DNA of 64,000 nt from Alphaproteobacteria bacterium (GTDB lineage Bacteria > Pseudomonadota > Alphaproteobacteria > CAAHEQ01 > UBA3637), in the NCBI GenBank assembly GCA_045613285.1, contig JAZLAQ010000026.1:10556-74555 (forward strand), given 5' to 3'. Numbering within the stretch: position 1 is the first letter of the stretch; the number at the start of each line of letters is the position of its first letter. This document shows, in pieces, positions 18,862-41,185 of the stretch. Below the pieces are notes generated by a model. It had not been told where the DNA came from. It was given only the letters and a program-made list of their open reading frames with translations, and did not search any database. Made by a program: the position numbers and the translations under genes.

Positions 18862-21030
18862 ATGGATAAAAATATAAAAAATACAATACAGAATAAACAA
18901 ACGACGACCGAATCCGGTCGGAGTATGGTGGAAATGCTGGGTGTACTGGCAGTTGTTGGGTTTTTATCTGTTGGGGGAATTGTAGGTTATACCCATGCAA
19001 TGAACAAATATCATGCCAATGAGATTGTTAGCGAAGTATCTATGATGGCAGTAACGGCATCGCAAGGATTGTTGCTAAACGGTGATTTTACATTAGATGA
19101 ATATGGTGATGAGGTTGCCGGTTATTCGTATGACTACAACGTTGATTTTGGCGGAACAGAAGATCGTTTCAGTATTACGGTTCAGGGTGTAGAAGACGGT
19201 GTATGTGAAAACATAAAGAATATGAACTTCAGTGCATTAAATCAAATTCTTGTCAATGGGACAGCAGACGGAGATTGCACTGATCCCAGTGATGTCGAGT
19301 TTGTCTTTTATGATGATTTTGGCGATTCTTATGAAGGAGAAAACGGTGAAGGAGAAGGAGAACAGCACCTTTCTTGTAATGAAGAACGATGTATGACTTG
19401 CCCAGCTGGAAAAGAAATTTCATGTAAAGATGATTTTAGCGATTGTGCATGTGCAACGAATCCGGAAGATCCAGACAGTTGGGCATGTTATTATATGGAT
19501 TCAGGAAAGAAGAACTGTATTGAATGTCCAGAAGGACAAAAAGTAGTTTTTGATTATGGAAAAGGTTATTGTGTTGATTCTGAGGTAAATGCAAAAGTAT
19601 GTTACGGAGAAATATGCGAGTGTTCAGAGGATGAAACACCTGTTTGTGTAAAGGATGGTTGTGCTTGTGCAAAAGAAAATGAAACAGTTGAGTGTAACCA
19701 TCGAGGATGTATTGTTTGTCCTGAAGGAGAAACACCAAAATGTCCAGCAACGATTGGGAATGAAATAGGTTGCGCATGTATACCACATGTAGAAGATGAA
19801 ACGACTTGGACATGTCGGAGACGTGCATGTATTGGGTGTCAGAAAGGTGAAACACCAATGTGCCCCGAATATGGAGACGGGGAAGAAGCTTGCACCTGTA
19901 TTAAAGCGGGGGAAGAGTGGACGTGTAGTATTAATTATTGTCTGAGTTGTCCAGAAGGGTTCACTCCTCAAGGAGTTCCTGGTTGGGGAAATACCCCTTT
20001 TGTTTGTGTAGATAAGACTAAACCAGATAGTTGGGCATGTGGTGGGTCAGAGTGTATCTCGTGCAATGAAGGTGAAAAACCATTGTGTGGCTCGACCTGT
20101 GTCTGTGTTCCGGATGGTGTTTCTGCTGCATGTAATAGAGGAAACTGTATTACTTGTCCGGTTGGGAAAAAAGCTGTCTGTGGTGATGATGCAGATTTAG
20201 AATATAGTCTTAATTGTTCTTGTATTGATGAAAGTTCTTCTAGTTGGGCGTGCAGTGAAGAAAAGTGTATTGGGTGCCCTGAAGGAAAAATAGCGCATTG
20301 TGATGGATACTCCTGTGTTTGTCTTTCTGAGGAGGCAAAGGAAAATGAGGATTGGGCTTGTAGTGGCTATTCTTGTATTGTCTGCCCCGAAGGGAAGACC
20401 GCCAAGTGTCCTGAATGGGGTGGGTATGAAAACGCCTGTGTTTGTCTTTCTGAGGGGGCAAAGGAAAATGAGGATTGGGCTTGTAATGATAACGTATGTA
20501 TTGAATGTCCTGAAGGTAAAAAAGCTATGTGTTCTGATTATGGGGATGATGAAAGTGCTTGTGTCTGTATATCAGCTAATGCTGTAAAAGGTGAAGATTG
20601 GAATTGTAGTGAAAGTAACTGCGTTACCTGTTCTAATGGGACAATTGCAATATGTGGAGATTATACTTGTAAATGCATTATTGATACTGGAAATGAGGAC
20701 AGTTGGGCATGTAGTTCAGAAGAGTGTATCGAGTGCCCTGAAGGGAAGATACCAAAGTGTTCTGATTGGGGAAATTGTATCTGTATTTCAAAAGATTCTG
20801 AGGAAGGAAGAGATTTCTTATGTGCTCCAGATATGTGTGTCAGCTGTACCAACGGAAAAAAACCGGTATGTGCCGATGATTATGATGGTTATGATACCTG
20901 CATCTGTGTTACCGATATAGATGACGAGGATAGTTGGGAATGTAATTCTGCCGACTGTATTGATTGCCCCGGTGGATATGCAAGATGTCCGAGTAACTAC
21001 GGTGGTTACGGTGATTGTTATTGTACGTAA
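18862..21030 (+). CDS. Giant type IV pilin-like protein with cysteine-rich repeat C-terminal domain (pilin-like adhesin candidate 1)
   Basis: Leader MDKNIKNTIQNKQTTTESG, then cleavage-site G|RSMVEML with Glu at +5 and a hydrophobic helix (GVLAVVGFLSVGGIVGY). A ~130-aa pilin-like globular region follows, then about 14 Cys-rich ~40-aa modules (WAC..C..CPEGK..C..C.C) that include near-identical 123-bp tandem copies. An RBS is present upstream. Confidence 0.75.
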   Translation: MDKNIKNTIQNKQTTTESGRSMVEMLGVLAVVGFLSVGGIVGYTHAMNKYHANEIVSEVSMMAVTASQGLLLNGDFTLDEYGDEVAGYSYDYNVDFGGTEDRFSITVQGVEDGVCENIKNMNFSALNQILVNGTADGDCTDPSDVEFVFYDDFGDSYEGENGEGEGEQHLSCNEERCMTCPAGKEISCKDDFSDCACATNPEDPDSWACYYMDSGKKNCIECPEGQKVVFDYGKGYCVDSEVNAKVCYGEICECSEDETPVCVKDGCACAKENETVECNHRGCIVCPEGETPKCPATIGNEIGCACIPHVEDETTWTCRRRACIGCQKGETPMCPEYGDGEEACTCIKAGEEWTCSINYCLSCPEGFTPQGVPGWGNTPFVCVDKTKPDSWACGGSECISCNEGEKPLCGSTCVCVPDGVSAACNRGNCITCPVGKKAVCGDDADLEYSLNCSCIDESSSSWACSEEKCIGCPEGKIAHCDGYSCVCLSEEAKENEDWACSGYSCIVCPEGKTAKCPEWGGYENACVCLSEGAKENEDWACNDNVCIECPEGKKAMCSDYGDDESACVCISANAVKGEDWNCSESNCVTCSNGTIAICGDYTCKCIIDTGNEDSWACSSEECIECPEGKIPKCSDWGNCICISKDSEEGRDFLCAPDMCVSCTNGKKPVCADDYDGYDTCICVTDIDDEDSWECNSADCIDCPGGYARCPSNYGGYGDCYCT

Positions 21031-21037
21031 GTTCCTG

Positions 21038-21070
21038 ATATCCCCCGCCTTGTGTGGGGGATATTTATAA
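21038..21070 (+). terminator. Hairpin terminator after pilin-like gene 1
   Basis: 9-bp stem atatccccc/gggggatat with a 9-nt loop, followed by an A/T-rich tail. The U-run is weak. Confidence 0.45.
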
Positions 21071-21127
21071 GGTTGGGGTATACGGACCTTATCCGCTGGT
21101 TTTCCCCATTCAGTTGGAAATAGTAAG

Positions 21128-21540
21128 TTGATTTTCATGTGTTTACTGCATCCTCGGGTTAAGTCCGAGGATGACAGACCGTATAAATGTCATTGCGAAC
21201 GCAGTGTGGTAATACCCTTTAGTCATTGCGAGGGCTGTAGCCCGTGGCAATCTTTGGAAAATACAGCGTTGGCGTCAAGAGATTACTTCGTCATTACATT
21301 CCTCGTAATGACGGTTGAAGTTAAGAGATTACTTCGTCGTTGCACTCCTCGTAATGACGGTGAAGTTAAGAGATTATTTCGTCGTTGCACTCCTCGTAAT
21401 GACGATTAAGGTTAAGAGATTACGTCGTCGTTATACTCCTCGTAATGACGATTAAGGTTAGGAGATTACTTCGTCGTTATACTCCTTGTAATGACGGTAA
21501 ATATACATCGTCATTGCGAACGCAGTGTGGCAATCTCGTA
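21128..21540. repeat. Array of a structured repeat family: five tandem ~45-bp units (aagagattacttcgtcgttgcactcctcgtaatgacgg...) bracketed by ~24-bp direct repeats (gtcattgcgaacgcagtgtgg.aat)
   Basis: The units start near 21277, 21323, 21367, 21414 and 21459. Flanking direct repeats lie at 21189-21214 and 21508-21538. An internal palindromic element is agcccgtggcaatc. The same motif family recurs after pilin-like gene 2. Confidence 0.8.
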
Positions 21541-21572
21541 AAAGGGCACTGTTTTCTATTTTGAGTTTTCTC

Positions 21573-22127
21573 TTACTTTTCCAGTCGGTCTAAAATATAA
21601 TGGTAGGCTTCATTAAGCTTTTTAAACCGGCGTTCGGCTTCCTTGTCACCTTTATTGACATCCGGATGACATTTTTTTGCCAGTATTTTAAAACGCTTTT
21701 TGACTTCGCTGATTGTAAACGGTGGGGTAATCCCCATTAAATCTAATGCTGTTTGCATTTTCTTTTCAAATTGAGGAGCTTTCGGTGGTGGGTTGTATTT
21801 ACCGTCCATTCCCAGACCGACATCTTCCCTGACATTAAAATAATCTTTTATTTTCGGGTCTGTTTTTACACCCCCATGTCCCAGTTTCCATGTTGGCCGT
21901 TGCCAAGTGGTGTCGTTTTGTAGGTGCTCTTCTATTTCTTCGGCAGATAAGCCCTGTAAAAAATTCCAATTTTTATTGTATTCTTTTACATGCTTTAAAC
22001 AAAAATAGTAGTAATCCTGTAGATTTCTATCCTTTGGTGCCCGATATTCACCCGCTTCTTCACAATTCGGATGATCACATTTACGGGTTGTTTGGGGTTT
22101 TGTGTTCTTTTTTTGTCTTAATCTCAT
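21573..22127 (-). CDS. J-domain protein with N-terminal Cys/His-containing domain
   Basis: The C-terminal J domain carries the HPD motif (KKCHPDVNKGDKEAERRFKKLNEAYHYI). The N-terminus has CDHPNCEE...FCLKH. Confidence 0.7.
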   Translation of the reverse strand: MRLRQKKNTKPQTTRKCDHPNCEEAGEYRAPKDRNLQDYYYFCLKHVKEYNKNWNFLQGLSAEEIEEHLQNDTTWQRPTWKLGHGGVKTDPKIKDYFNVREDVGLGMDGKYNPPPKAPQFEKKMQTALDLMGITPPFTISEVKKRFKILAKKCHPDVNKGDKEAERRFKKLNEAYHYILDRLEK

Positions 22128-22366
22128 CGAAAAAAATATCTAAAAAGTTTTCAGCCAAGAAAAAACTATATAAAATATTCAGTCAAAAGTCAAGAAAAAA
22201 GAAACAATCATCCTTGTAACAGTCGAAAGTATAGTTTATTTTTTATTTAAAAACAAATAATTATAATTTTTTGTCAAAAATAATGTTTTTTTTCTTGCGG
22301 GGGGCTTTCAAAATAAAAAAAAGTGTGATATAATGCCTCTATCATCAGAAATAAGGAGAACATGAT

Positions 22367-22882
22367 ATGTCAAAAGACTACACATTTAATCCTGGAGATT
22401 TTGTGGTTTATCCCGCACATGGCGTCGGGCAAGTTAAAGAAATTCAACAAACGGCTGTTGCCGGACAAAGTCTGGATTTAATTGCTATTAATTTTAATAA
22501 AGATAAAATGATGTTGCGTATTCCGTTAAATAATGCCCGCAAAAGTGGATTGCGTCAGATATCGCATGCCTCGGTTATGGCAGATGCTATTACAACGTTG
22601 CAAGGAAAAGCAAAGGCTAAACGGGGACAATGGAGTAAACGGTCTCAAGAATATATGTCTAAAATTAATTCCGGTGATCCGATCTCTGTTGCAGAAGTTG
22701 TTCGGGATTTATATAAGGATCCGATAAATTCGGAACAAACTTACAGTGAACGGCAAATATATGATTTTGCTATGAGTCGTTTGTCTTCTGAATATGCTGC
22801 CGTTCATGCTATTCAGGAAAAAGAAGCTCAATCCCAGATTGAATCTATCTTGCGTAGCAAATCTGTGAAAAGTGATGTATAA
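22367..22882 (+). CDS. CarD/CdnL family transcriptional regulator
   Basis: The N-terminus FNPGDFVVYPAHGVGQVKEI is the RNAP-interacting domain typical of CarD_CdnL. Length is 171 aa. Confidence 0.8.
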   Translation: MSKDYTFNPGDFVVYPAHGVGQVKEIQQTAVAGQSLDLIAINFNKDKMMLRIPLNNARKSGLRQISHASVMADAITTLQGKAKAKRGQWSKRSQEYMSKINSGDPISVAEVVRDLYKDPINSEQTYSERQIYDFAMSRLSSEYAAVHAIQEKEAQSQIESILRSKSVKSDV

Positions 22883-23171
22883 GACAGCTTTATTTGCATC
22901 TTTATTTTTTATTTTTTCTTTAACCGCTTGTTCGGAGTTTCGTCCGTTTATTGATACCAGACGAGAGGCTGGTATGGTTCAGCCTGTGGGGCAATCAAGG
23001 CCTGACAGAATAGCGGTGTGTTATAATCCGGTTTGGGATAATGAATCCGACTATGAGGGATTGGCCCGTCAAGCCTGTGCAGAACAAGGGAAAATAGCTG
23101 TTTATGATACAACGGCTTATTTTAACTGTCGTTTGTTGTTGCCGAATACAGCTTTTTATCGCTGCCAATAG
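22872..23171 (+). CDS. Small lipoprotein (hypothetical)
   Basis: Signal peptide with lipobox LTAC; 99 aa. Confidence 0.45.
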   Translation: MMYKTALFASLFFIFSLTACSEFRPFIDTRREAGMVQPVGQSRPDRIAVCYNPVWDNESDYEGLARQACAEQGKIAVYDTTAYFNCRLLLPNTAFYRCQ

Positions 23172-23172
23172 T

Positions 23173-23763
23173 TTATTTATAGCACCAAATCGGTATATTC
23201 ATCATATTCAGGCATCCGTTTTTAGGATGAATTTTTGTTGATAAGGTGCTGTCCTTTAAAAAAGTGCTCAACAAAAAATAGTCTGAAAAATTTTTTCGAA
23301 TATAGGTTTTAAGACCTTTTGTCTCTATACTTATTAAACCACTTTCATTTTTTAAGTTCAGAGTGCCAGCTGCCTGAAAAGTCAATTGTAAAATTTGACC
23401 GGACAGTTGTCGAATCTGTATTTCATCCGGATATAGTTTTATATCCGCCGTCAGAGGATTTTTAGTGAAACTTTTTATCTGCACGCTTGGAGGGAGTAAA
23501 GAAAATTTTAAATAAAAATTACCTAATAAAATAGGTTGTATCTGTTTTAAAGTTACATTTTGCAAGGTAAAGTGAAACGGATTGAGTCCAGTTGTTATCT
23601 TTTCAATGTGAATGGGTATGTTGTGTTGATTTAGCTCTGTTTCTAGTCTATGTCTAACCCAGTATTGAATACCATACAATGTTAAACAAAATAAAATAAA
23701 AATAGTGCATAAGATAATCAAAGTTTTTTTATGTTTTTTTGTCATTTGGGTAGTATAGTACAA
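23173..23763 (-). CDS. Membrane-anchored hypothetical protein
   Basis: 196 aa with a single N-terminal TM (TLIILCTIFILFCLTLYGIQYW). Confidence 0.4.
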   Translation of the reverse strand: MYYTTQMTKKHKKTLIILCTIFILFCLTLYGIQYWVRHRLETELNQHNIPIHIEKITTGLNPFHFTLQNVTLKQIQPILLGNFYLKFSLLPPSVQIKSFTKNPLTADIKLYPDEIQIRQLSGQILQLTFQAAGTLNLKNESGLISIETKGLKTYIRKNFSDYFLLSTFLKDSTLSTKIHPKNGCLNMMNIPIWCYK

Positions 23764-23816
23764 AATGTTTTTCTTGACAAGTCAGAAAAAAAGGAGTATA
23801 AACAAATTTATTCTTT

Positions 23817-23892
23817 GGGGCTGTAGCTCAGCTGGGAGAGCGCTGCGTTCGCAATGCAGAGGCCAGGGGTTCAATCCCCCTCAGCTCCACCA
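23817..23892 (+). tRNA. tRNA-Ala (anticodon CGC as read)
   Basis: Clover-leaf read by eye: acceptor GGGGCTG/CAGCTCC, D-arm GCTC-AGCTGGGA-GAGC, anticodon stem-loop CTGCG-TTCGCAA-TGCAG, T-arm AGGGG-TTCAATC-CCCCT, then ACCA. A G3:U70 pair, the Ala identity element, is present. Confidence 0.85.
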
Positions 23893-23921
23893 AAATCACC
23901 TTTTTATGGGTGATTTTTTTT
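23893..23921 (+). terminator. Terminator after tRNA-Ala
   Basis: aaatcacc-tttttatg-ggtgattt hairpin followed by T8. Confidence 0.65.
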
Positions 23922-24364
23922 GTTTCTGAATTTTAAAAAATAAAAAACTTGACAAAAATAATAAGAGGTGATAAAATACATTCGGTTTAAATTAAAAGGG
24001 GAGAAAGTGACATGGCTGAAACACCTGAAAATGAATTTGGTGACAGAATTGGTAAAACCGAAATTTGCCAAGGTATTTTGATTTGGAGCGGATTGATTGT
24101 ATGGGCTGTGTGTGCCTGCTTGCGTGGTTGTCAGGAAAAAACTGAAAAGAAAGAAAGCACTATTCAGAAAAATCAAACGGTCGAACAAGTGAAAAAGATT
24201 GTCGAGACTAATCGGGTGTCTTATATCGACTTAACACAAAGACAGAGATAAGTTTTACCATTATTAAAATCATTTAGAAGCTTTTCTCTATATGGATAAG
24301 ACTGGTGAAATTTTTTTAACAGAATAATGTTTTGATATTATATCACGGGCTGGATTTATCTTTC

Positions 24365-25051
24365 TTATAGTTCGCGGATATTTCTTTGGGTAAACAGACG
24401 GAAAAGTAAACCAATAACTCTGATCGTAACGGAGTAAATTATATGTGCAAAAAATACAAAAAACAGACCAAAAATAATGGGGTCTTTTTGTAATTTTTTT
24501 GGGATGTAATCCACTAAATTATGCTCGGATAAAAAACGGTATATTAAATCAGGTCGAAACATACCCAGATAAGTTGTACCGAGGAAGAAAACAATTCCGA
24601 TCACAGACGTAATAAAATTCTTTTTTTTCTGTTTTTTTATGGTTTTTTGTGTTTCACTTATCGGAAACTCGGCTGAAGTCGTTAGTTTTTCCGATATTAA
24701 TATATCTTCAAACTTGTCTGAATTCATAACACCGGCTGCATATAGGACAAATGAAACAATACAGCAAAGAAAGGTGGTAGAAATATTTAAAGACGACATC
24801 AGTTGTTTTATTGCCAATAAAATAAAGAATACTGCAGCAATATACATAATGATGGTTAATTGTCTGATTTCTTTGTCCGGCAATACCATATTCCTGTCAT
24901 CTTCATCTTTAAAGCGGAGGGAAATATTGTTTTTTTGACATTCCTTTTTTATCAGTGATGACAGTTTTTCATGAAGTTTTTTCAGTTTTGGAAAACAGGA
25001 TAATAGTTTTCCCCCTTTTTGATACATCCAAATTTCCCAATTTTGTTTCAT
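24365..25051 (-). CDS. Hypothetical multi-pass membrane protein
   Basis: 228 aa with about 4 hydrophobic segments. It lies in an AT-rich region between tRNA-Ala and tRNA-Met. Confidence 0.35.
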   Translation of the reverse strand: MKQNWEIWMYQKGGKLLSCFPKLKKLHEKLSSLIKKECQKNNISLRFKDEDDRNMVLPDKEIRQLTIIMYIAAVFFILLAIKQLMSSLNISTTFLCCIVSFVLYAAGVMNSDKFEDILISEKLTTSAEFPISETQKTIKKQKKKNFITSVIGIVFFLGTTYLGMFRPDLIYRFLSEHNLVDYIPKKLQKDPIIFGLFFVFFAHIIYSVTIRVIGLLFRLFTQRNIREL

Positions 25052-25509
25052 TTTTTTTCTTTCATTTCAATTAGTAGTTAGTATATTTATGATAATATCT
25101 AACATTTTATTAAAAATCAATAGAAATATTCTTTTATAAAAAAATAAGGTATGAAAATAAATCGAAAAATGGTGAATAGGGGTTTATCTGCTTACATGGT
25201 TAGCCATATTAGAAAGATACAAATCCAAGTAAAAGATATGAATAAAACAAAAAACAAAATACATGTTTTTTGAAAATAATTTGCAGTTTTCCACCTTATT
25301 CCTTTGTCGAAGAGATAAGGTATATAGTGATGTATAAATAACACAAAAGGAACTATATAAAGTATTGCTTCAAATGCAGTTAGCGCAAAAGTAAGGATAA
25401 GATAGATAGGTATATACAAAAAATACATAATAATAGGCATAATAAAATTATATACAAATTTTATTTATGAGTCAAGAATAAATTTCTATTTCTAACGACT
25501 TGTGTTTTT

Positions 25510-25529
25510 TGGTTGCAGGGGTGGGATTT
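25510..25529 (-). repeat. 20-bp direct duplicate of the 3' end of the downstream tRNA-Met gene (tggttgcaggggtgggattt), an att-site-like scar
   Basis: It is identical to 25673-25692, the 3' terminal 20 nt of tRNA-Met including CCA. The two copies are 143 bp apart. Confidence 0.7.
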
Positions 25530-25672
25530 ATTCGCGCAAAAGCGCTCACCCTACGGGCTGTTTCGCATTGCTCAACATTGCCTACATTTCATTTCGGCCG
25601 AACCAGTGGTTCATTCACCTCACCCCCCGATCATAAACAAACACGCCCCGATAAACGGGACGTTTTCCTTTA

Positions 25673-25750
25673 TGGTTGCAGGGGTGGGATTTGAACCACA
25701 CGACCTCCAGGTTATGAGCCTGGCAAGCTACCGGACTGCTCTACCCTGCG
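25673..25750 (-). tRNA. tRNA-Met (anticodon CAT), probably initiator type
   Basis: The minus strand reads CGCAGGG-TA-GAGC-AGTCCGGTA-GCTT-G-CCAGG-CTCATAA-CCTGG-AGGTC-...TTCAAAT...-CCCTGCA-ACCA. It aligns almost position-for-position with E. coli tRNA-fMet, including the unpaired C1:A72. Confidence 0.8.
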
Positions 25751-25877
25751 ATAAGAACGAACATATAATATACTTTTTTATTTCGTTTGTCAAGACATTC
25801 TTTCTTCTTTTTTTATTTTTTTGTTTTTGGATATGAAAAACGGGCCGATAAACAGCCCGTTTCGGAAGCAAAACTTG

Positions 25878-26948: not shown

Positions 26949-27046
26949 AGTATTTCCTCCTGTGTTTTCTATATACTTTCATTATACACCGAAAACATTT
27001 TTTTGTCAAATCTCTTTTTATTTTTTTAAAAATGTGAGAAAAATGT

Positions 27047-27075
27047 TTGACACATTTTAAATCCAAGGTTATACT
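27047..27075 (+). promoter_or_regulatory. Near-consensus sigma70 promoter of pilin-like gene 3 (TTGACA-17-TATACT)
   Basis: -35 at 27047-27052, a 17-nt spacer, -10 at 27070-27075. RBS GGGAG is 8 nt upstream of the ATG at 27100. Confidence 0.6.
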
Positions 27076-27099
27076 GTAAGTATGAAGGGAGAAATTCTT

Positions 27100-29166
27100 A
27101 TGCAGAATTGTAAACAGGATGAGCGTGGTTCTCTGATGGTTGAGGTTCTGGCCGTTGTTGCCTTGTTGGGCTTGGTCGGGACGGTTTTGTATCGTCAGAT
27201 TGATAACCGAAATAAAGAACTGGATAATATTAATATGGCTTCTGAAACCCGTATGGTAAAAGAAGCTGTTAAAGCCTATATTCAGGCTAATCATGCTTGG
27301 TTGGAAGAACAATGTCGGGCAAGTATTGACGATGGGTATTGTGAACTTGGGGAAGTTGATGATGATACTCGTTCAGATATTGATTTGTATATGCCGGCTT
27401 ATGCAGCTTGCTATGATGGCGATGGCAATTGCTTGTTGAATAATTATGATATTTATATGAGCGGTTATGTTGTGGATGCTGATTTATCCCCACGGGTGGC
27501 CTTGTATGCAACTATCAAACCGAATTATCAGTTGATTGGTGGATTAAAACGGGCGGCCCGTATTGCCAACCTGATTGGTACGGATGGTGGTGTTTTTGAT
27601 GGTGAGGACGGATCAACCTTGTACGGAACTATGGGGGCATGGGAAACAGCTTGTCCATGGGGAGATTGTGATCAAGGCGATGGTGCTTATTTTGTGGCGA
27701 CAACGGGGATGGATATCTATATTCCAGAAACAGAAAATAATGCCGATAATGTGGTGGCTTTCCCGAAAAAATTAGCCTTAACGGAATTGCATGGTGCTAA
27801 CTATTTGTCTGTTGGTGGTAATTGTGTGACTTTAACGGAAGGTGGCTATTTCTTGCATGAAGCCGGTATAAAGGATGGAAAGGCAACAGACGATAGTGTT
27901 AAACGTGTCGGGACTGATTTATGTGATCCGTTATTTTGGGTCGGGTCTGTATCCGGTGTCGGTTCAGATAAGTCGGAAGCCGGTCAGGTTTATATGAAAA
28001 ACGGTTTGTACATCGGACGGGATAATGCCAATGACAAGCAAGCTATTGCTTTAGAAAAAACAAAGGTCGGCGCCGGTAAAATTACCGTTTTTGATGAAAC
28101 GGGTGATGAACGGTTGGTTTTGAATGCCAGTGGTAAAATTGTCGGTCGAACGAATGATGTCACCGGAAAAGGATTCCAGTTAGATGCTAAAAGTGGGTCT
28201 TTGATTTTGTTTGAAGAAAAGAATGTAACAATAGGTGGAGAGTCCCGCCGTGTTCAGGTCCAAAATACCCGTATTAAAGACGGTGTTCTGGAAACGGGAA
28301 TAGAGTATACCTATAAGGATGATGCTGGAAATAATAGAACGGAAAACTTTAAAGTAGATCCGGCCTATACATCTGTTATGAATGACATTCGGTTGGCTTC
28401 CCGCGGTGGGGCAAGATTGAGTGATATCCTGCCTGATTATATTTTAAAGGGAATGCATACGGTTGAACACTGTGTAGCCAATAATTCTGGTGTGTCAATT
28501 CCAAAGCCACCTTGTCCGGCGGGATATACGCGGGCAATAACGTTTACGTTGACCAGTTTTCCTGTAGGGATTTCCGATATTACTTTAGATTTACCGCCAG
28601 TGACAGTTAATCCGAATGGAGAAGATGGGTCTGTAACCGTTGATCCTGCTGCTGTTCAAGGGCTTGTTAAAACAACGGGTAATAATGTGATAGCTGGTGT
28701 AAACGGTAGTCCTTTGCAGGTAACGCAAATCGGATATCCTTGGATAAAAATTACTGATGATAATAGTAATTGGAATATTCAAATTTTTAATGAAAATGAT
28801 TTACCAAATAGGGCTGATTGTCTGGATGGGAATTATGGATTGGCACAAACATATTGTGTGTTTTCTGAAAGTAATATTAATGCAGAAGATGGTCTTAATG
28901 GTTTTGGGTTGAGTCGAGAAGCGTTTGAGGCACCTGATCTTCCTGATGCGGACAGAGGATGTACTTCAAACACGGATTGTACCAATACGGAAACGTGTGT
29001 CAGTAATGTCTGTACGCCGTTGGGAACTTGTACAAAAAGTGATGGATCATTTGAAGGTGGCAATGTTTACTGCATCGATGGGCAGAAAGTTTATATGGAC
29101 TGTGGTTTGAGTGAGAGTGATACTTGTGAAGACGGAAAAAACTGCGTTAACTATCGTTGTGAATAA
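27100..29166 (+). CDS. Large type IV pilin-like protein (pilin-like adhesin candidate 3) with C-terminal Cys-rich knot
   Basis: Leader MQNCKQDERG, then cleavage-site G|SLMVEVL with Glu at +5 and a hydrophobic helix AVVALLGLVGTVLY. A ~650-aa extracellular region follows. The last ~75 aa carry 12 Cys (GCTSNTDCTNTETCVSNVCTPLGTC...CVNYRCE). The 27082 ATG has no RBS, so 27100 is preferred. Confidence 0.7.
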   Translation: MQNCKQDERGSLMVEVLAVVALLGLVGTVLYRQIDNRNKELDNINMASETRMVKEAVKAYIQANHAWLEEQCRASIDDGYCELGEVDDDTRSDIDLYMPAYAACYDGDGNCLLNNYDIYMSGYVVDADLSPRVALYATIKPNYQLIGGLKRAARIANLIGTDGGVFDGEDGSTLYGTMGAWETACPWGDCDQGDGAYFVATTGMDIYIPETENNADNVVAFPKKLALTELHGANYLSVGGNCVTLTEGGYFLHEAGIKDGKATDDSVKRVGTDLCDPLFWVGSVSGVGSDKSEAGQVYMKNGLYIGRDNANDKQAIALEKTKVGAGKITVFDETGDERLVLNASGKIVGRTNDVTGKGFQLDAKSGSLILFEEKNVTIGGESRRVQVQNTRIKDGVLETGIEYTYKDDAGNNRTENFKVDPAYTSVMNDIRLASRGGARLSDILPDYILKGMHTVEHCVANNSGVSIPKPPCPAGYTRAITFTLTSFPVGISDITLDLPPVTVNPNGEDGSVTVDPAAVQGLVKTTGNNVIAGVNGSPLQVTQIGYPWIKITDDNSNWNIQIFNENDLPNRADCLDGNYGLAQTYCVFSESNINAEDGLNGFGLSREAFEAPDLPDADRGCTSNTDCTNTETCVSNVCTPLGTCTKSDGSFEGGNVYCIDGQKVYMDCGLSESDTCEDGKNCVNYRCE

Positions 29167-31590: not shown

Positions 31591-31597
31591 TGTATTA

Positions 31598-32341: not shown

Positions 32342-32361
32342 ATCGCAAAGCAGCGCGCACC

Positions 32362-32580: not shown

Positions 32581-32596
32581 AGGCAGGAGGTTTATC

Positions 32597-33616: not shown

Positions 33617-33798
33617 TTAAAAAACGTAATAAATACGGTTTTTATGGTTGAAAGGGACATGTAATGTACGATTCAACTGTTTGATGACATTTTAATAAAT
33701 TTTTGATGTTATGTTAATAAAAAATAACATTGATTCTACCAAAACTGAAGTAAAAAAACACCCCACCGACAGGCAGGGCGTTTTTTGTTTAGATAATC

Positions 33799-34860: not shown

Positions 34861-35059
34861 ATCTTTTCCTTTCTGTTGTTGTTGTTTAAGTGTGTGTGTT
34901 TATATCATATCTTGAAACTGAAATCAAGTCTTTTGTTTTTTTGAACAAAACATTTTTGTGATACTTTTTTGACAATTATCTACTTTAAAACGGGTGGACT
35001 TGACAGATACCCCTTTTTTATGCTATAAAACATACGTTTTTATTTAGAAAGGATATTTC

Positions 35060-38000
35060 ATGCCAAAACAAATTATTAAAAATCGTTCATTTTTACCCTT
35101 GTGGTTTTCACAATTTTTATCTGTTATTAATGACGGTTTTATCCGAACGGTCTTTTTATTCTATGTGTCTTATCAAATGGTAAATGCCGGTAGTATGTTT
35201 TTGATCACTTCGGTTATCTTATATGCTTTATGCTTTTGTGGAGCTAGTTTATATGCTGGACAAATTGCAGATAAAATATCTCGTGTTCGCTTTTTGAAAT
35301 TGGTTCGTTTTGCCGAAATCGGTTTAATGTTGATGGCTTTATTGTTCGTCTTTTTGGATTCCAAATTCTTATTGATTCTGATTTGGGGATGTTTGGGGAT
35401 AACAATGGCTTGCCTGCGGGTTATTAATAACGCATTATTACCGACAATATTGGATAAAAATCATTTAAACTTCGGGAATATTTGGATGAAATCTTTATCT
35501 GTTGTTGGTGCCGGTTTCAGTACGGTGTTACTGATGTTCATTCTGAAATTTGATGCGGCAGCCGATATTATTTGTTTAGTTGCCGTTATTTCAGCCTGTA
35601 TTAGTTTTGTGGCTACATTGAAAATGAAAGCGGATAAACCAGCCGATGAGGAAGCAACATTTAGTTATAATCCCATTCCGGCATTTTATGAAGTCTTTCA
35701 ATCTTTAAAACACCAATTTGATAAATGGGCTTACTTGGTTGGTATAGCTTGGTTCTGGATTTTGGGTGGTCTGTTGTTATTTTTCTCTGCCGAGTACGGA
35801 CATTCTGTTTTAAATGCCCGTTGGTCTGTTGTTTCCTTTTTAAGTGCCGGTGTTTTTACAATTGGTTATGTTGTGGGGGCTTGTGTCTATGCAAAAGCAA
35901 CCCGAAAGGGAAACCTGTTTTCTTATACCGTTTGGGCCGGATTGGGAATTTCTGTAGTTTTGATTGACTTGATTTTAGCAGGTGGTTCTATCATGAAAAG
36001 TTCGGCAGTTAATGTAACCATTCACGATATGTTGGTTGGTGGTCTGGATTACTGGCGGGTTATCATTGATACTTTCTTGTTAGGAGGATTATCTGCTGTT
36101 TATATTATCCCATTCTATACAATGATACAAAAGACAACACCCAATCAAATATTGGGTCGGGTTATGGCTTTGAGCAGTGTTATTAATGCTATGGGTATTG
36201 TGGCAGCCTTTTTGATTGTCCTGTGTTTTTCGTTATTGTTTATTGATTTATTGAGTATTGTGTTACTGTTTGCTGTTGCCAATATTTTTGTAGCAATTTA
36301 TATGGTTCGATTGCTACCGATTGAAACCAGAAGACATGTTTTTCGGGTTGTTTTAAAAAAACTGTTTAAGGTTCGTATTGAAGGGTTGGAAAATCTGAAA
36401 AAAGTCGGTAAGAAAGCATTGATTGTCACAAATCATACTTCTTATTTGGATGTACTTTTGATTTCAGCTTTCATTGACCGTAAAATTGTTTTTGCCATTA
36501 ACAACAGGCTGATTGATAAAAGTTTTGTTAAATTTATGACAAATTTGGTTGATGTCCGTCCGATGGATCCGGTCAGTCCTTTTGCTGTGAAAGATATGGT
36601 GGAAGAACTGAATAAAGATCAATTGTGTATGATTTTTACAGAAGGTGTCATTGAAGGTGGTAATACCAATATGAAAATCTATGAAGGACCGGCAATGATG
36701 GCAGTAAAAAGTAATGCACCGATTGTGCCGATACAGATTACCGGTGCCGGTTATGCAATCTTTTCCCGTATTTTGGGTAAAAAAGCGGATTTCCGTTGGC
36801 TTCCTGAAATTTCATTGAAAGTTTTACCGCCGGTACAATTTGATAATTATCCAGAAGATATGCCGACGCGTGAAATTCGTGAGCGGTCCAGCTCTAAACT
36901 GTATGATATTATGTCCGACATGGTTTTTGATGCCAGTGAAAAACATAAACCGGTATTTGAAACTTTTATTCATAGTATGCGTATGGTTGGTCGGTTTAAA
37001 CCGATATTGGAAGATACTGCCCGTAAACCGGTCAAGTTTATGATGGTGTTTTTAAAGTCCTTTATTTTAGGAAAACTGATAAATCGTACTATTCCGGATG
37101 AAAAACGGGTTGGAGTTATGATACCGACATCCAATGCCTGTGCAATGGTCTTTTTAGGATTGCATGCTTATGGGAAAGTACCGGCAATGCTCAACTTTAC
37201 TTCCGGTCCGAAACAGGTTATCGCAACCTGTCAGACTATTGGGTTAAAGACAGTTGTAACGGCTAAAAAAGTTGTGGCTTTGGCTAAGTTAGAAAATTTG
37301 GTTGCTGCTTTGGAAGATGCCGGTATACGAATTGCTTATTTGGAAGATATGGCAACAACGTTGACCCTGAAAGATAAGTTGATAGGTATCTGGGAAGCTT
37401 TATTCCCATTGCGGGCTTACAAAAAGAATAGTGGTGGACAGGTTAAATCCGATGATCCGGCTGTTATTTTGTTCACATCCGGTTCGGAAGGTTTCCCAAA
37501 GGCGGTTTTCCTGTCGCACAATAATTTGATTTCGAATGCCTATCAGGTGCCGGCCCGTATTGATATCCTGCCGTCGGATATTTTCCTGAACGTGTTGCCG
37601 ATGTTCCATTCTTTTGGTTTGGTTGGTGGCTTTATTTTGCCGATATTGACAGGTGTTAAAACCGTTTTATATCCGACGCCACTTCATTATCGGGTTATTC
37701 CGCAATTGTGTGCATCGACAAAAGCAACCATTTTCTTTGGAACGGATACATTCTTGTCCGGTTATGCAAAATGTGCCAATCCATATGACTTTAACAGTTT
37801 GCGTTTGGTCGTTGTCGGGGCTGAAAAATTAAAAGAAGAAACCCGCAGAGTCTGGTCTGAAAAATTTGGTGTCCGTGTTCTGGAAGGATATGGGGCAACT
37901 GAATGTTCTCCGTTTATTTCGGTCAATACGTTCCTGCATCAGAAAAAAGGTTCTGTTGGTCGTGCTTTACCGCAAATTACTTGCGAATTGAAACCAGTTG

Positions 38001-38485
38001 AAGGTATTACGGAAGGGCGTGAGTTATGGGTAACCGGTCCAAATGTGATGAAAGGCTATATGCGATATGATAAGCCTATGGAATTGGATCCACCTAAAGA
38101 TAACTGGTATGATACAGGGGATATCGTTCATGTGGACGAAGACGGATATATCTTTATTAAAGGACGATGTAAGCGTTTTGCTAAAATTGGTGGAGAAATG
38201 GTTTCTTTATTGGCTGTGGAAGGTGTAATTACTAAAAAATGGCCTGACTATATTTCCGGTGCCGTCAATATTCCGGATGCTAAAAAGGGGGAACAAATTG
38301 TTCTGATTACAACCTGTAAGGATATTACAAGGGATGAAATGATTGCCGCCTTTAAAGCAGCCGGTATTACCGAATTGGGTATACCAAGTCGTGTTATCGT
38401 AACCGATACACCACCGATTTTGGGTACAGGTAAGTTTGACTATGTCTCGGCCAAAGAAATGGCATTGAAGGAAGTCAACGGATAA
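35060..38485 (+). CDS. aas: Fused lysophospholipid transporter LplT (MFS) plus bifunctional Aas (2-acyl-GPE acyltransferase / acyl-ACP synthetase)
   Basis: 1141 aa. About 12 N-terminal TMs are followed by the PlsC-type acyltransferase motif VTNHTSYLDVLL (HX4D) and an adenylate-forming domain (ILFTSGSEGFPKAVFLSHNN; GYGATECSP). Confidence 0.8.
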   Translation: MPKQIIKNRSFLPLWFSQFLSVINDGFIRTVFLFYVSYQMVNAGSMFLITSVILYALCFCGASLYAGQIADKISRVRFLKLVRFAEIGLMLMALLFVFLDSKFLLILIWGCLGITMACLRVINNALLPTILDKNHLNFGNIWMKSLSVVGAGFSTVLLMFILKFDAAADIICLVAVISACISFVATLKMKADKPADEEATFSYNPIPAFYEVFQSLKHQFDKWAYLVGIAWFWILGGLLLFFSAEYGHSVLNARWSVVSFLSAGVFTIGYVVGACVYAKATRKGNLFSYTVWAGLGISVVLIDLILAGGSIMKSSAVNVTIHDMLVGGLDYWRVIIDTFLLGGLSAVYIIPFYTMIQKTTPNQILGRVMALSSVINAMGIVAAFLIVLCFSLLFIDLLSIVLLFAVANIFVAIYMVRLLPIETRRHVFRVVLKKLFKVRIEGLENLKKVGKKALIVTNHTSYLDVLLISAFIDRKIVFAINNRLIDKSFVKFMTNLVDVRPMDPVSPFAVKDMVEELNKDQLCMIFTEGVIEGGNTNMKIYEGPAMMAVKSNAPIVPIQITGAGYAIFSRILGKKADFRWLPEISLKVLPPVQFDNYPEDMPTREIRERSSSKLYDIMSDMVFDASEKHKPVFETFIHSMRMVGRFKPILEDTARKPVKFMMVFLKSFILGKLINRTIPDEKRVGVMIPTSNACAMVFLGLHAYGKVPAMLNFTSGPKQVIATCQTIGLKTVVTAKKVVALAKLENLVAALEDAGIRIAYLEDMATTLTLKDKLIGIWEALFPLRAYKKNSGGQVKSDDPAVILFTSGSEGFPKAVFLSHNNLISNAYQVPARIDILPSDIFLNVLPMFHSFGLVGGFILPILTGVKTVLYPTPLHYRVIPQLCASTKATIFFGTDTFLSGYAKCANPYDFNSLRLVVVGAEKLKEETRRVWSEKFGVRVLEGYGATECSPFISVNTFLHQKKGSVGRALPQITCELKPVEGITEGRELWVTGPNVMKGYMRYDKPMELDPPKDNWYDTGDIVHVDEDGYIFIKGRCKRFAKIGGEMVSLLAVEGVITKKWPDYISGAVNIPDAKKGEQIVLITTCKDITRDEMIAAFKAAGITELGIPSRVIVTDTPPILGTGKFDYVSAKEMALKEVNG

Positions 38486-38546
38486 AAATAAAAATCCCTG
38501 TATTTTTTACGGGGATTTTTGTTATTATTTTTTAAAGAAAAAAAAG

Positions 38547-38575
38547 TTGCACAAAATGACAAAATATGGTAAAAT
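38547..38575 (+). promoter_or_regulatory. Sigma70-like promoter of pilin-like gene 2 (TTGCAC-17-TAAAAT)
   Basis: -35 at 38547-38552, a 17-nt spacer, -10 at 38570-38575. RBS AAGGGGGA lies before the ATG at 38615. Confidence 0.5.
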
Positions 38576-38614
38576 AAAAGAATAGTGAGAAGATATGAGA
38601 CATAAGGGGGATTT

Positions 38615-41185
38615 ATGATTAAAAGAATCATTCACAAATTCAAATCAGGTGAAGCCGGGCGGAGTATGGTAGAGATGCTGGCAGTTTTGGCGATAATAGG
38701 TGTATTGACGATAGGTGCGATGGCTGGTTATCGGTATTCGCTTGAAGTGATTATGGCGAACAATATTGTGAATGGTGTGACGGCACGGTCTGTTATAATC
38801 GGTCAACAACGCGTGTTGGGACGGCCGTTAAATTTGAAGGAATTTCATCCGAATAGCAGTAAGGACTTAATATACGACCGTTTCGAGGTGGAGGTATATG
38901 AAGATTATTATGAAGACGGGACGAACATACAGGCCTTGGAGGTAAGGGATATACCGCAGAATGTTTGTAAGCGGGTTGTAAAGACAGAGTTTCCGGATAT
39001 GGCGACGGTGGCAGTTAATGATGTTGTGGACGGAGAGTGTGATATACCGGACGGAGATAAGATATGTAGTAGTTTTACGTGTAGTGAAGAGTTTTTGTCC
39101 CGGGAATATCATAATACGGTCGCGTTTATTTTTGGTGAAGGTGGATACACAGGGTTTTGTGAGAAACGGACGGATTGTCCGTACCCGATATGTCAAAAAT
39201 GTCAGGAGGGTGTTTGTGTAGCCAATACCGACCAGGACGGAGAGCCTTGTTCAACGGCAGCTGGACTTTGCTGTATGGATGGTGTATGTATATCGGATGA
39301 AAGCTGTGGCTATGAACCATCGGACGGCGAAGAATCTTGTGGAGAGGTCAAGCATGGCGAACAATACAATGATTGCGGATTATGTGACAACGGAACGGTT
39401 ATCATGGGTGAAGAAATAACGGATCCGTGTGTTCAATGTGATTTGCATACAGATTATAAAAAGACGCCTCGTGCAGATGGAACAGGACAGTCTGACGGAA
39501 AATGTTGTGTTGGCGGAGAGTTGAAGTATGATGCAACACACTGTCCGGCGACATGTGAGGGGATGGGAACAGCCTGTCAAGTATGTGACGGCAATACCGG
39601 AAATTGGATTTTTAAAGACAACACAAAAACAAAAGTATGCGGAACAGAATGTTGCGGTAGTGAGGGATGTAACAGTCTTGGAACAGGATGTAAAAAGTCA
39701 TGTGAAGGAACAGGGAATGCCTGTCAAACATGCGATGATACAACGGGTGAATGGGTCTTAAATGATAGTGGTAAGACCAATGTCTGTGGAACAGAATGTT
39801 GCGGTAGTGAGGGATGTAACAGTCTTGGAACAGGATGTAAAAAGTCATGTGAAGGAACAGGAAACGCCTGTCAGGTATGTGACGGCAATACCGGAAATTG
39901 GGTTTTAAAAGACAATACAAAAACAAAAGTCTGTGGAACAGAATGTTGCGGTAGTGAGGGGTGTAATAGCCTTGGAACAGGATGTAAAAAGGCTTGTACA
40001 GGGACAGGTAATATCTGTCAGGTATGTGATGATACAACGGGTGAATGGAAAACTGTTGAGGACGGTTCTAATAAACAAGATGACGGCAGATGTTGTATTG
40101 ATGGTGCGCTTGCGTATGATGCAGAATTGTGTCCGGCAAAGGACTGTATTTTTGACGGAATAACCTATTACCATGGAGAGAGTATTCGTGCTTGTGGTAT
40201 ATGTGTTGATGGTGAAATTCAGGAAGACACATCCAAAACATCGGTGTGTAAATGTGATAAAACGACTTGGAGGGCAGACCATAGCATGACAGATCCTGCC
40301 ATCAGACGAGAAGACGGATCATGTTGTGTTGCTGGATATTTTCAACAACACTATGTCATATGTAAAACATGTACCGTAGATGGAAAAACTTATTTACATA
40401 ATGAAGATATTCCCCCCTGCAAATATTGTTTCGGAGGCCGAGTTTATAAGTATGATTCTAGAAGGCCCGACGGAACATGTTGTGTTGATGGTGAGGTAGT
40501 GCTTGATCCGGTTGAAATGACGTATTGGCCACAGTGTATGGCATGTACGTTCAACGGGTATGGCTATGAAAACGGTGCCAGTATTGGTACTTGCGGAAAA
40601 TGTGTTGATGGTGAAATTCAGGAAGATACATCCAAGGTATCGATGTGTCAAACATGTGATACAAGTACTTGGACGTTGACAAATGTAGCGAATGGCTCAA
40701 AACCACAGAGCGATGGCAGATGTTGTGTTGATGGAGAGTTAAAGTATGATGAAGCATGCCCTCCTGTTGGTGGGGATGGTGAAGAAGATAAGTGTCCAGA
40801 AAGTGCAACATTTGTTGGTGGTACCTGTTGTGTGGGACATCGCTATTGGTCTGATACTTATGATAAATGGATAGAATCTAGTGGCGTTGATGCGGTTTGC
40901 CGTTGTGTAGGAGAAGTAGGAAATGTTATTTATGATAGGGAGGCAGAATTCTGCTTTAAATGTTTTTCAACAGAGTATTCGGGTGCAGGCACCTGTCCTG
41001 TAGGAAAGTACATGATAGATTACGATGAATGCATAGCTGAAGATAAAATTGGACTTGTAAGAGAGTGTTGTGCTGTAGTTGGAGGAGAATTCTGTGAGCC
41101 GGCTGGTATATGTCTATTAAAAGATCATGTGTGTTGCGAAAATGGCTCTGTAGCCTTGAAATCAGTTGGATGCCCCTTACTTTGA
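38615..41185 (+). CDS. Giant type IV pilin-like protein with cysteine-rich repeat C-terminal domain (pilin-like adhesin candidate 2)
   Basis: Leader MIKRIIHKFKSGEAG, then G|RSMVEML with Glu at +5 and helix AVLAIIGVLTIGAMAGY. A pilin-like globular region follows, then ~650 aa with more than 100 Cys. These include 3.3 near-identical 147-bp tandem repeats (CEGTGNACQVCDGNTGNW..KVCGTECCGSEGCNSLGTGCKKS). Confidence 0.75.
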   Translation: MIKRIIHKFKSGEAGRSMVEMLAVLAIIGVLTIGAMAGYRYSLEVIMANNIVNGVTARSVIIGQQRVLGRPLNLKEFHPNSSKDLIYDRFEVEVYEDYYEDGTNIQALEVRDIPQNVCKRVVKTEFPDMATVAVNDVVDGECDIPDGDKICSSFTCSEEFLSREYHNTVAFIFGEGGYTGFCEKRTDCPYPICQKCQEGVCVANTDQDGEPCSTAAGLCCMDGVCISDESCGYEPSDGEESCGEVKHGEQYNDCGLCDNGTVIMGEEITDPCVQCDLHTDYKKTPRADGTGQSDGKCCVGGELKYDATHCPATCEGMGTACQVCDGNTGNWIFKDNTKTKVCGTECCGSEGCNSLGTGCKKSCEGTGNACQTCDDTTGEWVLNDSGKTNVCGTECCGSEGCNSLGTGCKKSCEGTGNACQVCDGNTGNWVLKDNTKTKVCGTECCGSEGCNSLGTGCKKACTGTGNICQVCDDTTGEWKTVEDGSNKQDDGRCCIDGALAYDAELCPAKDCIFDGITYYHGESIRACGICVDGEIQEDTSKTSVCKCDKTTWRADHSMTDPAIRREDGSCCVAGYFQQHYVICKTCTVDGKTYLHNEDIPPCKYCFGGRVYKYDSRRPDGTCCVDGEVVLDPVEMTYWPQCMACTFNGYGYENGASIGTCGKCVDGEIQEDTSKVSMCQTCDTSTWTLTNVANGSKPQSDGRCCVDGELKYDEACPPVGGDGEEDKCPESATFVGGTCCVGHRYWSDTYDKWIESSGVDAVCRCVGEVGNVIYDREAEFCFKCFSTEYSGAGTCPVGKYMIDYDECIAEDKIGLVRECCAVVGGEFCEPAGICLLKDHVCCENGSVALKSVGCPLL

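Follow-up and report, generated by a model that had tools for sequence, protein, structure and literature searches.

Two families of large cysteine-rich pilin-like proteins encoded near a type IVb pilus assembly operon in an alphaproteobacterium

Organization of the locus

The DNA stretch studied here, referred to as the window, comprises 64,000 nucleotides of an Alphaproteobacteria bacterium (GenBank assembly GCA_045613285.1, contig JAZLAQ010000026.1, positions 10,556 to 74,555) and harbors three large protein-coding genes as well as an operon for type IVb pilus assembly. It is chromosomal and has a G+C content of about 38%. The products of 18862..21030, 27100..29166 and 38615..41185, all encoded on the plus strand, are denoted P1, P2 and P3, respectively. 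An earlier note, prepared from the sequence alone, had described them as one family of giant pilin-like proteins with cysteine-rich extensions. Translation of the window confirms that the three open reading frames (ORFs) are real, uninterrupted and free of frameshifts, with 722 and 856 residues for P1 and P3 as given in that note and 688 instead of 689 residues for P2. The possibility of pseudogenes is ruled out by the intact ORFs and by the conservation of P2 over the whole or most of its length in hundreds of relatives. The core of the earlier description, a prepilin module joined to a huge cysteine-rich extension, is upheld by an invariant Gly-1/Glu+5 pair and by a modeled head of type IVb-like fold. 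The grouping into one family is not: P1 and P3 are paralogs, whereas P2 belongs to a second, unrelated family. Taken together, the three proteins probably represent two classes of subunits of a single type IVb pilus system.

Predicted N-termini

The N-terminal sequences read ..TESG/RSMVEMLGVLAVVGFLSVGG in P1, ..DERG/SLMVEVLAVVALLGLVGTVL in P2 and ..GEAG/RSMVEMLAVLAIIGVLTIGA in P3, with the slash marking the predicted cleavage position (G19/R20, G10/S11 and G15/R16, respectively). The leaders, formed by residues 1-19, 1-10 and 1-15, are short and polar, end with glycine at position -1 and are followed by glutamate at +5 and by at least 20 hydrophobic residues. Position +1 is occupied by arginine in P1 and P3 and by serine in P2, thus by a residue other than phenylalanine. 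The start of P2 is placed at 27100, where the identical database protein P0121 begins as well; an upstream ATG at 27082 lies inside the ribosome-binding site (RBS). When the complete window is scanned in all six frames for the pattern G-x4-E followed by at least 14 hydrophobic residues, only the three genes and one spurious match in an 83-codon frame are obtained. Gly-1 and Glu+5 are invariant among 76 aligned homologs of P1/P3 and 72 homologs of P2 (G10 and E15), which, judging from these alignments, is not a matter of chance. The prepilin-type N-termini proposed earlier are therefore borne out.

Structure of P1 and P3

The AlphaFold2 (AF2) model of P1 residues 1-300, based on 122 sequences and with a mean predicted local distance difference test (pLDDT) score of 80.7, shows a single helix of 53 residues (20-72) that begins at the predicted position +1. 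It is followed by a head with a β-sheet (strands 88-95, 102-110, 128-131 and 143-150) and a short helix, and pLDDT values exceed 90 in most blocks of the head. The pilin-like fold considered in the earlier note is thus found in the model. Foldseek searches of the PDB depict CofA of the type IVb pilus of enterotoxigenic Escherichia coli (ETEC) (9iuf_A, probability 1.00, E 0.011) and Vibrio cholerae TcpA (8uhf, probability up to 0.99), both type IVb major pilins, as the best structural matches of the P1 head.

Pairwise protein comparison reveals 29% identity over 141 aa between the heads of P1 and P3 (E 2e-18). This is the common globular segment which the earlier note had assigned to P1 and P2; P2 has only the leader and the helix motif in common with P1 or P3. 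A pair of head cysteines (C115-C139 in P1, C118-C142 in P3) resembles the disulfide loop of the pilin D-region and is predicted to be bonded, the two P1 columns being occupied by cysteine in 51 and 50 of 76 relatives.

Beyond the linker the P1 model continues as a series of paired β-hairpins with pLDDT values of about 77-88. The modules of this tail follow the pattern W-x-C-x4-C-x2-C-P-E-G-x4-C-x(3-12)-C-x-C, and module parsing places 86 of the 88 cysteines of P1 within it. The module has no sequence match in Pfam, NCBIfam or the PDB (P1 Pfam scan to E 1, module profile against the PDB). The Cys-rich modules of P1 and P3, with about 37-49 aa, six to eight cysteines and modeled stacked β-hairpins, are similar to the repeats of furin-like, tumor necrosis factor receptor (TNFR) cysteine-rich and epidermal growth factor (EGF) domains, but the cysteine spacing C-x4-C-x2-C...C-x(3-12)-C-x-C is a pattern of its own. 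Foldseek matches of the P1 tail to R-spondin Fu1-Fu2, 4-1BB and MSP1-19 are weak, and since probabilities for EGF-, TNFR- or furin-like domains do not exceed 0.12 and Pfam matches are missing, the EGF-like domains suggested previously are not demonstrated. The repeat modules are previously unmodeled. Among all proteins collected here, the P1 module recurs in only five others, so that the tails are highly diverse.

In P3 the pilin module extends to about aa 150 and is succeeded by a Cys-rich tail with 88 cysteines. The repeat CEGTGNAC..KVCGTECCGSEGC, formerly placed in P2, is located here, with four CxGTGxxCxxCD units from aa 314, of which three are full 49-aa copies and the fourth diverges after about 20 aa. 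Five DGxCCxxG and two CGxCVDG units form further modules of the tail. A total of 23 P3 homologs have 477-1259 aa, and most of them share the leader and contain 8-14% cysteine. At the DNA level, Tandem Repeats Finder (TRF) detects a 123-bp tandem duplication within the P1 gene (20301-20568) and a threefold 147-bp repeat within the P3 gene (39614-40048); these duplications are recent.

Distribution of the P1/P3 head family

The head family, as defined by the first ~150 residues of P1 and P3, comprises 2,712 proteins in an indexed search. When 1.84 billion cluster representatives are scanned exhaustively with HMMER, 4,220 are retrieved at E ≤1e-3 and 852 at E ≤1e-10. Canonical members are small (120-145 aa), have a leader of about seven residues and contain an invariant G/RSMVEMLG motif in 113 of the 120 listed. 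The alignment of 76 members shows no variation at the G, R, S, M, V, E, M and L of the motif or at Y43 and N53, and about two thirds of the members have a cysteine pair spaced by 15-25 residues near the end of the head. All named members of this family and of the P2 relatives originate from metagenome-assembled genomes (MAGs) of uncultured Alphaproteobacteria from the guts of humans, ruminants and rabbits. The 3.3-kb contig that carries one family member (L004, JAZLLX010000012.1) has been binned as 'Acidaminococcaceae', while every other match belongs to alphaproteobacterial MAGs; faulty binning is the probable cause, not a genuine presence in Firmicutes.

Sampling of 80 related loci (about 1.2 Mb) yields 112 complete family ORFs, namely 29 below 200 aa, 18 of 200-350 aa, 44 of 350-500 aa, 13 of 500-700 aa and eight of at least 700 aa, the largest with 1,005 aa. 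Thus 83 of the 112 exceed 200 aa, their tails contain 8-12% cysteine, and giant members with long Cys-rich tails are common within the lineage rather than exceptional. One MAG carries at least 12 paralogs of the head family. In three of the loci (L033, L067 and L080) three or four large Cys-rich pilin paralogs of 369-994 aa are arranged head-to-tail in one array; the pilin genes of the window are instead dispersed among housekeeping genes. Two further loci (L083:10001-11758 and L085:9114-10887) each harbor, at a conserved site, four small pilin genes of the GRSMVEML type (123-149 aa) in tandem, adjoining the ATP synthase a/c/b genes and a gene for a DsbA-like Thioredoxin_4 protein. These small pilins are candidate shaft pilins and the Thioredoxin_4 protein is a candidate disulfide oxidase.

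The number of cysteines in the predicted mature proteins is even in 99 of 110 P1/P3-family ORFs, i.e. in all 22 ORFs below 200 aa (p = 2e-7) and in 77 of the 88 longer ones (p = 1e-13). The same holds true for 115 of 119 P2-family proteins (p = 1e-29). Such parity is the pattern expected of fully disulfide-bonded exported proteins and points to disulfides. Metal-binding cysteine clusters are less likely in view of six instead of four or eight cysteines per module, the export signal and the even parity in 90-97% of the proteins.

The P2 family

P2 has 667 homologs. The best 120 comprise 470-768 aa and show 29-49% identity, in most cases over 85-100% of the query. In the AF2 model of P2 (pLDDT 74.5) a helix formed by residues 7-74 is followed by an α/β head up to about residue 200 (pLDDT about 90), by β-rich domains and by a confidently modeled cysteine knot. 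The terminal knot had formerly been ascribed to P3, with 12 cysteines; it is a compact 10-Cys knot at the C-terminus of P2 (aa 621-687) and is restricted to a closer subgroup of the homologs. Of the 23 cysteines of P2 one is located in the leader, leaving 22 in the mature protein.

The only significant Foldseek matches of P2 are to CofB, the type IVb minor pilin of ETEC (5ypz_A, E 5.4e-4; 4qs4, E 6.4e-4). Structural-match figures amount to 6.6 for CofA, 6.1 for the C-terminal half of TcpB, 6.1 for PilM (3eoi), 6.0 for TcpA, 5.7 for TcpB, 4.9 for CofB and about 4.1-4.2 for H-type lectins. At the profile level the P2 family matches a 473-aa large pilin of Bosea over 170 residues (hhalign probability 96.5%, E 1e-9), which is encoded at the distal end of a plasmid-borne type IVb operon and hence in the PilV position. 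A second collinear motif common to both, RLxDxLPxYxL...KPxC, is detected by BLASTP (E 5e-4), and the two are found as two hidden Markov model (HMM) domains. The PilV-style minor pilin of the earlier note is in agreement with these matches as far as P2 is concerned. P2 is probably the large minor pilin of the system, a counterpart of PilV, TcpB and CofB.

The HMM profile of P2 does not match the counterpart large pilins of Salmonella or Thalassospira, and P2 has no Pfam match at E ≤1, including Shufflon_N (PF04917). Profiles of the P2 and P1/P3 head families as well as of the P1 module give either insignificant pilin matches (E 0.15-0.4) or none among PDB sequences. No match is obtained by tblastn of P2 against 72,556 plasmids, which rules out a kinship with R64 PilV that is detectable at the sequence level. 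The P2 gene stands alone at a distance of about 11 kb from the operon, flanked by dksA and by an unannotated gene, and ORF and Pfam scans of the window reveal neither a recombinase such as Rci nor an inverted cassette or shufflon around it.

The pilus assembly operon

On the opposite strand the window contains a type IVb pilus assembly operon encoding a TcpQ-domain protein, a PilN-family secretin, PilO, a PilP-like protein, an assembly ATPase and a platform protein (Table 1). The secretin scores 300.6 bits with the model TIGR02520, 'PilN family type IVB', and hence above its cut-off (287.65), and shares about 29% identity with PilN secretins annotated on plasmids. The genes of the operon are arranged in the same order as in the annotated type IVb operons of Bosea, Thalassospira and Salmonella plasmids, which between them also encode a prepilin peptidase together with a major and a large pilin. 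Neither a pilin gene nor a prepilin peptidase gene is present in the operon of the window, so that it needs subunits and a peptidase encoded in trans. The profile of the P1/P3 head has no match among the annotated type IVb major pilins of the Thalassospira and Salmonella plasmids. The presence of this PilN-type operon agrees with the earlier proposal that links the large proteins to a pilus machine of the window.

Comparison with known systems

Pilins with grafted modules constitute a described class, the modular pilins, a survey of which includes an 860-residue pilin with 12 repeats (PMC8179133). Like PilB and PilC of Streptococcus sanguinis, P1 and P3 are composed of an N-terminal pilin module, a linker and grafted modules, with a predicted position at the tip; the steric argument concerning a bulky module has been made for PilB as well (PMC8179133). 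Unlike the surveyed modular pilins, they possess a head similar to type IVb major pilins, arginine at +1 and novel Cys-rich repeats, they score below the cut-off of the InterPro/Pfam prepilin signature used in the survey (PMC8179133), and their family is expanded to at least 12 paralogs per genome.

In type IVb systems one large minor pilin initiates assembly and is situated at the tip (PMC5207764, PMC6048534). P2 is similar to TcpB of the V. cholerae toxin-coregulated pilus and CofB of the ETEC pilus CFA/III with regard to its very large size, long helix α1, pilin head and β-rich domains. It differs from both in the lack of sequence similarity detectable by profile search of PDB sequences, in its length (688 aa versus 390-496 residues in the matched chains of known structure), in the additional C-terminal 10-Cys knot and in the position of its gene, which is not located beside a major pilin gene.

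The operon shares its core order, TcpQ-domain protein, PilN, PilO, PilP, ATPase and platform protein, with the thin-pilus region (PilL-PilV) of R64/IncI1. In contrast to R64-type systems, it is chromosomal without conjugation genes nearby and lacks a pilS-like pilin, a peptidase, a lytic transglycosylase and a second ATPase. Interchangeable pilus tips have been found in the Kil (Tad) pilus of Myxococcus (PMC12075869), where one machine likewise serves several large pilin-type proteins with variable domains and differing target specificities. Since the Kil pilus belongs to the Tad/Flp class, has multi-protein tip complexes and functions in predation, this analogy is functional only.

Literature searches for the motif RSMVEML, for the lineage in combination with pili and for Cys-rich pilins of gut Alphaproteobacteria return no paper on the head family. 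The statement that the architecture is not a commonly described family is thus correct insofar as the family has neither a curated model nor a paper, but it overstates the conceptual novelty, as the architecture belongs to known kinds, namely modular pilins and large type IVb minor pilins. New are the family itself, the class III motif with Arg at +1 that is missed by signatures, the type IVb-like head, the unmodeled Cys repeats and the expansion within the lineage.

Proposed assembly and alternative explanations

In the assembly scheme that we infer, which covers cleavage at G/R or G/S, oxidation, use of the window operon, filament position and adhesion, P1, P2 and P3 would be inserted into the inner membrane in a Sec-dependent manner, whereupon an A24 prepilin peptidase whose gene lies outside the window would remove the leader behind Gly-1 and leave Arg+1 in P1 and P3 and Ser+1 in P2. 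Cysteine pairs would be oxidized in the periplasm, and the machine formed by PilN, PilO, PilP, ATPase and platform protein would extract the subunits and polymerize them via the conserved helix α1 and Glu+5. By analogy with TcpB and CofB, P2 may prime assembly and cap the filament, while small pilins of the GRSMVEML type, encoded elsewhere, would form its shaft. The Cys-rich rods might then be displayed as interchangeable binding modules at or near the tip or sparsely along the pilus, and paralogs with different tails would provide one machine with a varied adhesive or recognition repertoire. Such interchangeability is suggested, by analogy, by the repertoire of paralogs with divergent tails. 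In helix α1, P1 and P3 hardly differ from the abundant 120-145-aa pilins of the lineage and would therefore be compatible with the same helical core, into which they could be incorporated as modular pilins. Because of tip-to-base growth and the bulky tails, a position at or near the tip is most likely, and the flexible linker makes sparse incorporation into the filament body conceivable. A system with scattered subunit genes is the most economical reading.

Several findings weigh against this assignment. None of the three proteins reaches the cut-off of the prepilin models Pfam PF07963 (N_methyl) and TIGR02532; P3 scores 13.5 bits versus a cut-off of 21.2 and 10.5 versus 16.3, respectively, and P1 and P2 do not match at all. 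The atypical R/S-S/L-M-V-E motif is the likely cause of the sub-threshold scores, and a curated prepilin signature serves as an operational rather than a biological criterion. We know of no characterized type IV pilin for which arginine at +1 has been reported. The window contains neither a small major pilin gene nor a prepilin peptidase gene, the latter as judged by a GxGD[VI]K motif scan, by tblastn with the enzyme of the related rabbit-gut MAG locus L023 and by Pfam. This 234-aa Peptidase_A24 (L023:2987-3691, Pfam E 1.6e-14), for which no match to the methyltransferase region DiS_P_DiS is listed, is encoded 6.3 kb upstream of a pilin-family gene, in a housekeeping setting with a cytidylate-kinase-like gene, rodZ, prfA and prmC. 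Homologs of the operon are absent from the 80 related pilin loci, and the pilin genes are unlinked to the operon, so that their assignment to the window machine is by type and not by linkage. The leaders of about seven residues and the small size of the canonical members are type IVa-like traits, and the label 'IVb' consequently rests on fold matches and on the operon. Moreover, a tail of 550-700 aa is difficult to accommodate within a filament body that has to pass a secretin, and the structural scores are modest.

In decreasing order of weight, three other explanations are to be considered. P1, P2 and P3 might be true prepilins assembled by a different type IV filament machine encoded elsewhere, of the type IVa, Tad or type II secretion system (T2SS)-like kind, with the window operon serving other subunits. 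We regard this as unlikely, though it would account for pilin genes that never adjoin a PilN-type operon in the window or the related loci, for canonical members with the leaders and the mature size (115-135 aa) of type IVa pilins, for the housekeeping context of the sole peptidase found in a relative and for the weak resemblance of the protein P0069 to the type IVa pilin PpdD (E 1.8e-4, below cut-off). Against it, P1 and P2 both find their best structural matches specifically among type IVb proteins, the PilN-type operon of Bosea encodes a pilin homologous to P2, and the window operon, devoid of pilins of its own, needs subunits in trans; furthermore, no other type IV filament machinery was noticed in the 1.2 Mb of related loci, which were not searched systematically for it.

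A smaller chance is given to proteins that are processed but not polymerized, in which case they would serve as inner-membrane anchors or in a short pseudopilus, similar to T2SS pseudopilins, with the rod spanning the periplasm or protruding through the secretin. The steric clash of the long tails with packing in the filament body and the flexible linker of about 20 residues between head and rod would fit this arrangement, but tip placement solves the steric problem as well, the near identity of helix α1 with that of the small pilins argues for co-polymerization, and the architecture of the operon, with PilO, PilP and a TcpQ-domain protein instead of GspC, GspL and GspM of a T2SS, is that of a type IVb system. 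An ordinary Sec signal or signal anchor, with which the three Cys-rich proteins would be secreted or reside in the periplasm or outer membrane without any relation to pili, appears very improbable: it agrees with the sub-threshold prepilin scores and with a window devoid of a peptidase gene, but not with an acidic residue fixed within the hydrophobic segment, with Gly-1 and Glu+5 invariant in more than 140 homologs, with a predicted helix continuous over 53 residues in place of a cleavable h-region with an AxA site or with a head fold matching CofA and TcpA. Two subunit classes of one type IVb system remain the explanation we prefer.

Promoters, repeats and neighboring genes

Strong sigma70 promoters had been claimed for all three genes. 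For P2 and P3 the promoter-like hexamers in combination with a good RBS are convincing by eye, and these sites are regarded as putative promoters (Table 1). Upstream of P1 no clear -35/-10 pair is seen, and a consensus scan of this region gave fewer promoter-like sites than shuffled sequences. P1 and P3 are each preceded by a hairpin terminator, which in the case of P3 is that of the upstream gene at about 38488-38520. The sequence TATATTAAATCTAGACG is found twice upstream of P1 (18669-18697 and 18812-18834). A perfect palindrome, TCTAGACG-gt-CGTCTAGA, lies within the first copy and is a possible operator at which P1 is regulated.

Tandem arrays with a common core are located just downstream of both P1 and P3. 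The core, TTCGTCG..CTCCTCGTAATGACG, occurs nine times in the window according to a pattern search, in all cases within the two arrays, with zero copies expected. It is essentially absent from the related loci and therefore lineage-specific. It could act as a terminator, as an mRNA-stabilizing element or as a recombination substrate. An ORF of 253 codons on the minus strand (40956-41717), which overlaps the end of P3, is not a gene but the 123-bp array read through, its translation containing 'SLRGAKRRSNLL..IARASARGNLSTDCFTAFAMTMIQP' three times. Short palindromic elements (CATCCTCGGGTTAAGTCCGAGGATG and GTCATTGCGAACGCAGTG) flank the P1-distal array at 21140-21260 and 21500-21540. The database homologs P0005 and P0242 have false N-terminal extensions, 'SSSGLTRGSRN...', which resemble read-through of similar palindromic elements; in that case the upstream regions of pilin-family genes in other genomes would contain such repeats, too.

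Table 1. Positions of genes, protein segments and regulatory or repeat features in the window.
Feature	Position	Strand	Description or basis
Type IVb pilus assembly operon	6439..15781	-	Pfam, NCBIfam
Platform protein	6439-7569	-	Pfam T2SSF
Assembly ATPase	7582-9849	-	Pfam T2SSE
PilP-like protein	9859-10902	-	weak PilP score
PilO	10853-12178	-	Pfam PAP_PilO
PilN-family secretin	12187-13833	-	Pfam Secretin; NCBIfam TIGR02520
TcpQ-domain protein	13817-14704	-	Pfam TcpQ
Operon ORF, unknown product	14714-15781	-	ORF call
P1	18862..21030	+	722 aa, modular pilin (probable)
P1 leader	18862-18918	+	translation
P1 pilin module	aa 20-150 (18919-19311)	+	translation, AF2
P1 acidic/Gly linker	aa 151-171	+	low model confidence about residues 151-172
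P1 tail	aa 172-722 (19375-21027)	+	~15 six-Cys modules of ~37 aa
46-bp-unit tandem array	21277..21498	+	4.8 copies, just 3' of P1; core TTCGTCGTT..CTCCTCGTAATGACG; TRF
P2 promoter-like site	27047..27091	+	TTGACA (27047-27052), 17-nt spacer, TATACT (27070-27075); read by eye
P2 RBS GAAGGGAG	27084-27091	+	read from sequence
P2	27100..29166	+	688 aa, large minor pilin of PilV/TcpB/CofB kind (probable)
P2 β-rich middle	about aa 327-590	+	within 27100..29166
P2 C-terminal 10-Cys knot	aa 621-687 (28960-29163)	+	module parsing
P3 upstream region with promoter-like site	38488..38611	+	hairpin terminator (about 38488-38520), TTGCAC (38547-38552), 17-nt spacer, TAAAAT (38570-38575); read by eye
P3 RBS AAGGGGGA	38604-38611	+	read from sequence
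P3	38615..41185	+	856 aa, modular pilin (probable), paralog of P1
123-bp-unit tandem array	41215..41616	+	3.3 copies, 93% match, just 3' of P3; same core

The housekeeping genes of the window comprise truB, carD, dksA, maf, an RNase E/G-family gene, hda, ftsK, lolA, lpxK as well as clpB and fabI-like genes, and three tRNAs are also present. A second large surface-protein gene near the operon (66-3995) encodes an autotransporter of 1,309 aa with a β-domain (E 1.8e-41). Directly upstream of P1 (16395-18563) a gene for a pyruvoyl-dependent arginine decarboxylase is followed by an amino-acid permease gene, a pair that resembles an arginine/agmatine acid-resistance module and would be plausible for a gut organism. 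The gene directly upstream of P3 (35060-38485) encodes a 1,141-aa fusion of a major facilitator superfamily (MFS) transporter, an acyltransferase and an AMP-binding enzyme, which resembles a lysophospholipid transporter/Aas-type enzyme.

Significance

Type IV pili are major organelles of colonization and recognition, and the determinants of their binding specificity are poorly understood. It is conceivable, albeit doubtful, that gut and rumen Alphaproteobacteria run a combinatorial pilus display, in which one type IVb machine and the conserved primer P2 are combined with at least 12 interchangeable, fast-evolving pilins per genome. If so, the rods, up to about 1,100 aa long, would have arisen by tandem module duplication and would differ between paralogs and strains, acting as variable receptors for host, mucus or microbes or as modules of antigenic variation. 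They may in this case line the filament too, resulting in 'bottle-brush' pili, rather than occupy the tip alone, and Arg+1 would define a new prepilin subclass. Should the proteins be ordinary tip adhesins instead, the outcome would be a useful annotation of a large uncharacterized family without a new principle.

For an almost unstudied lineage of gut commensals, the head family implies thousands of pilin genes missed by standard prepilin signatures, most of which have probably escaped surveys that rely on such signatures. With Arg at +1, the range of substrates known for prepilin peptidases would become wider. The giant Cys-rich members, if indeed displayed on pili, would constitute a large library, provided by nature, of small disulfide-rich binding modules on one scaffold, and the question of how bulky subunits pass a type IVb machine could be approached with them in a tractable way.

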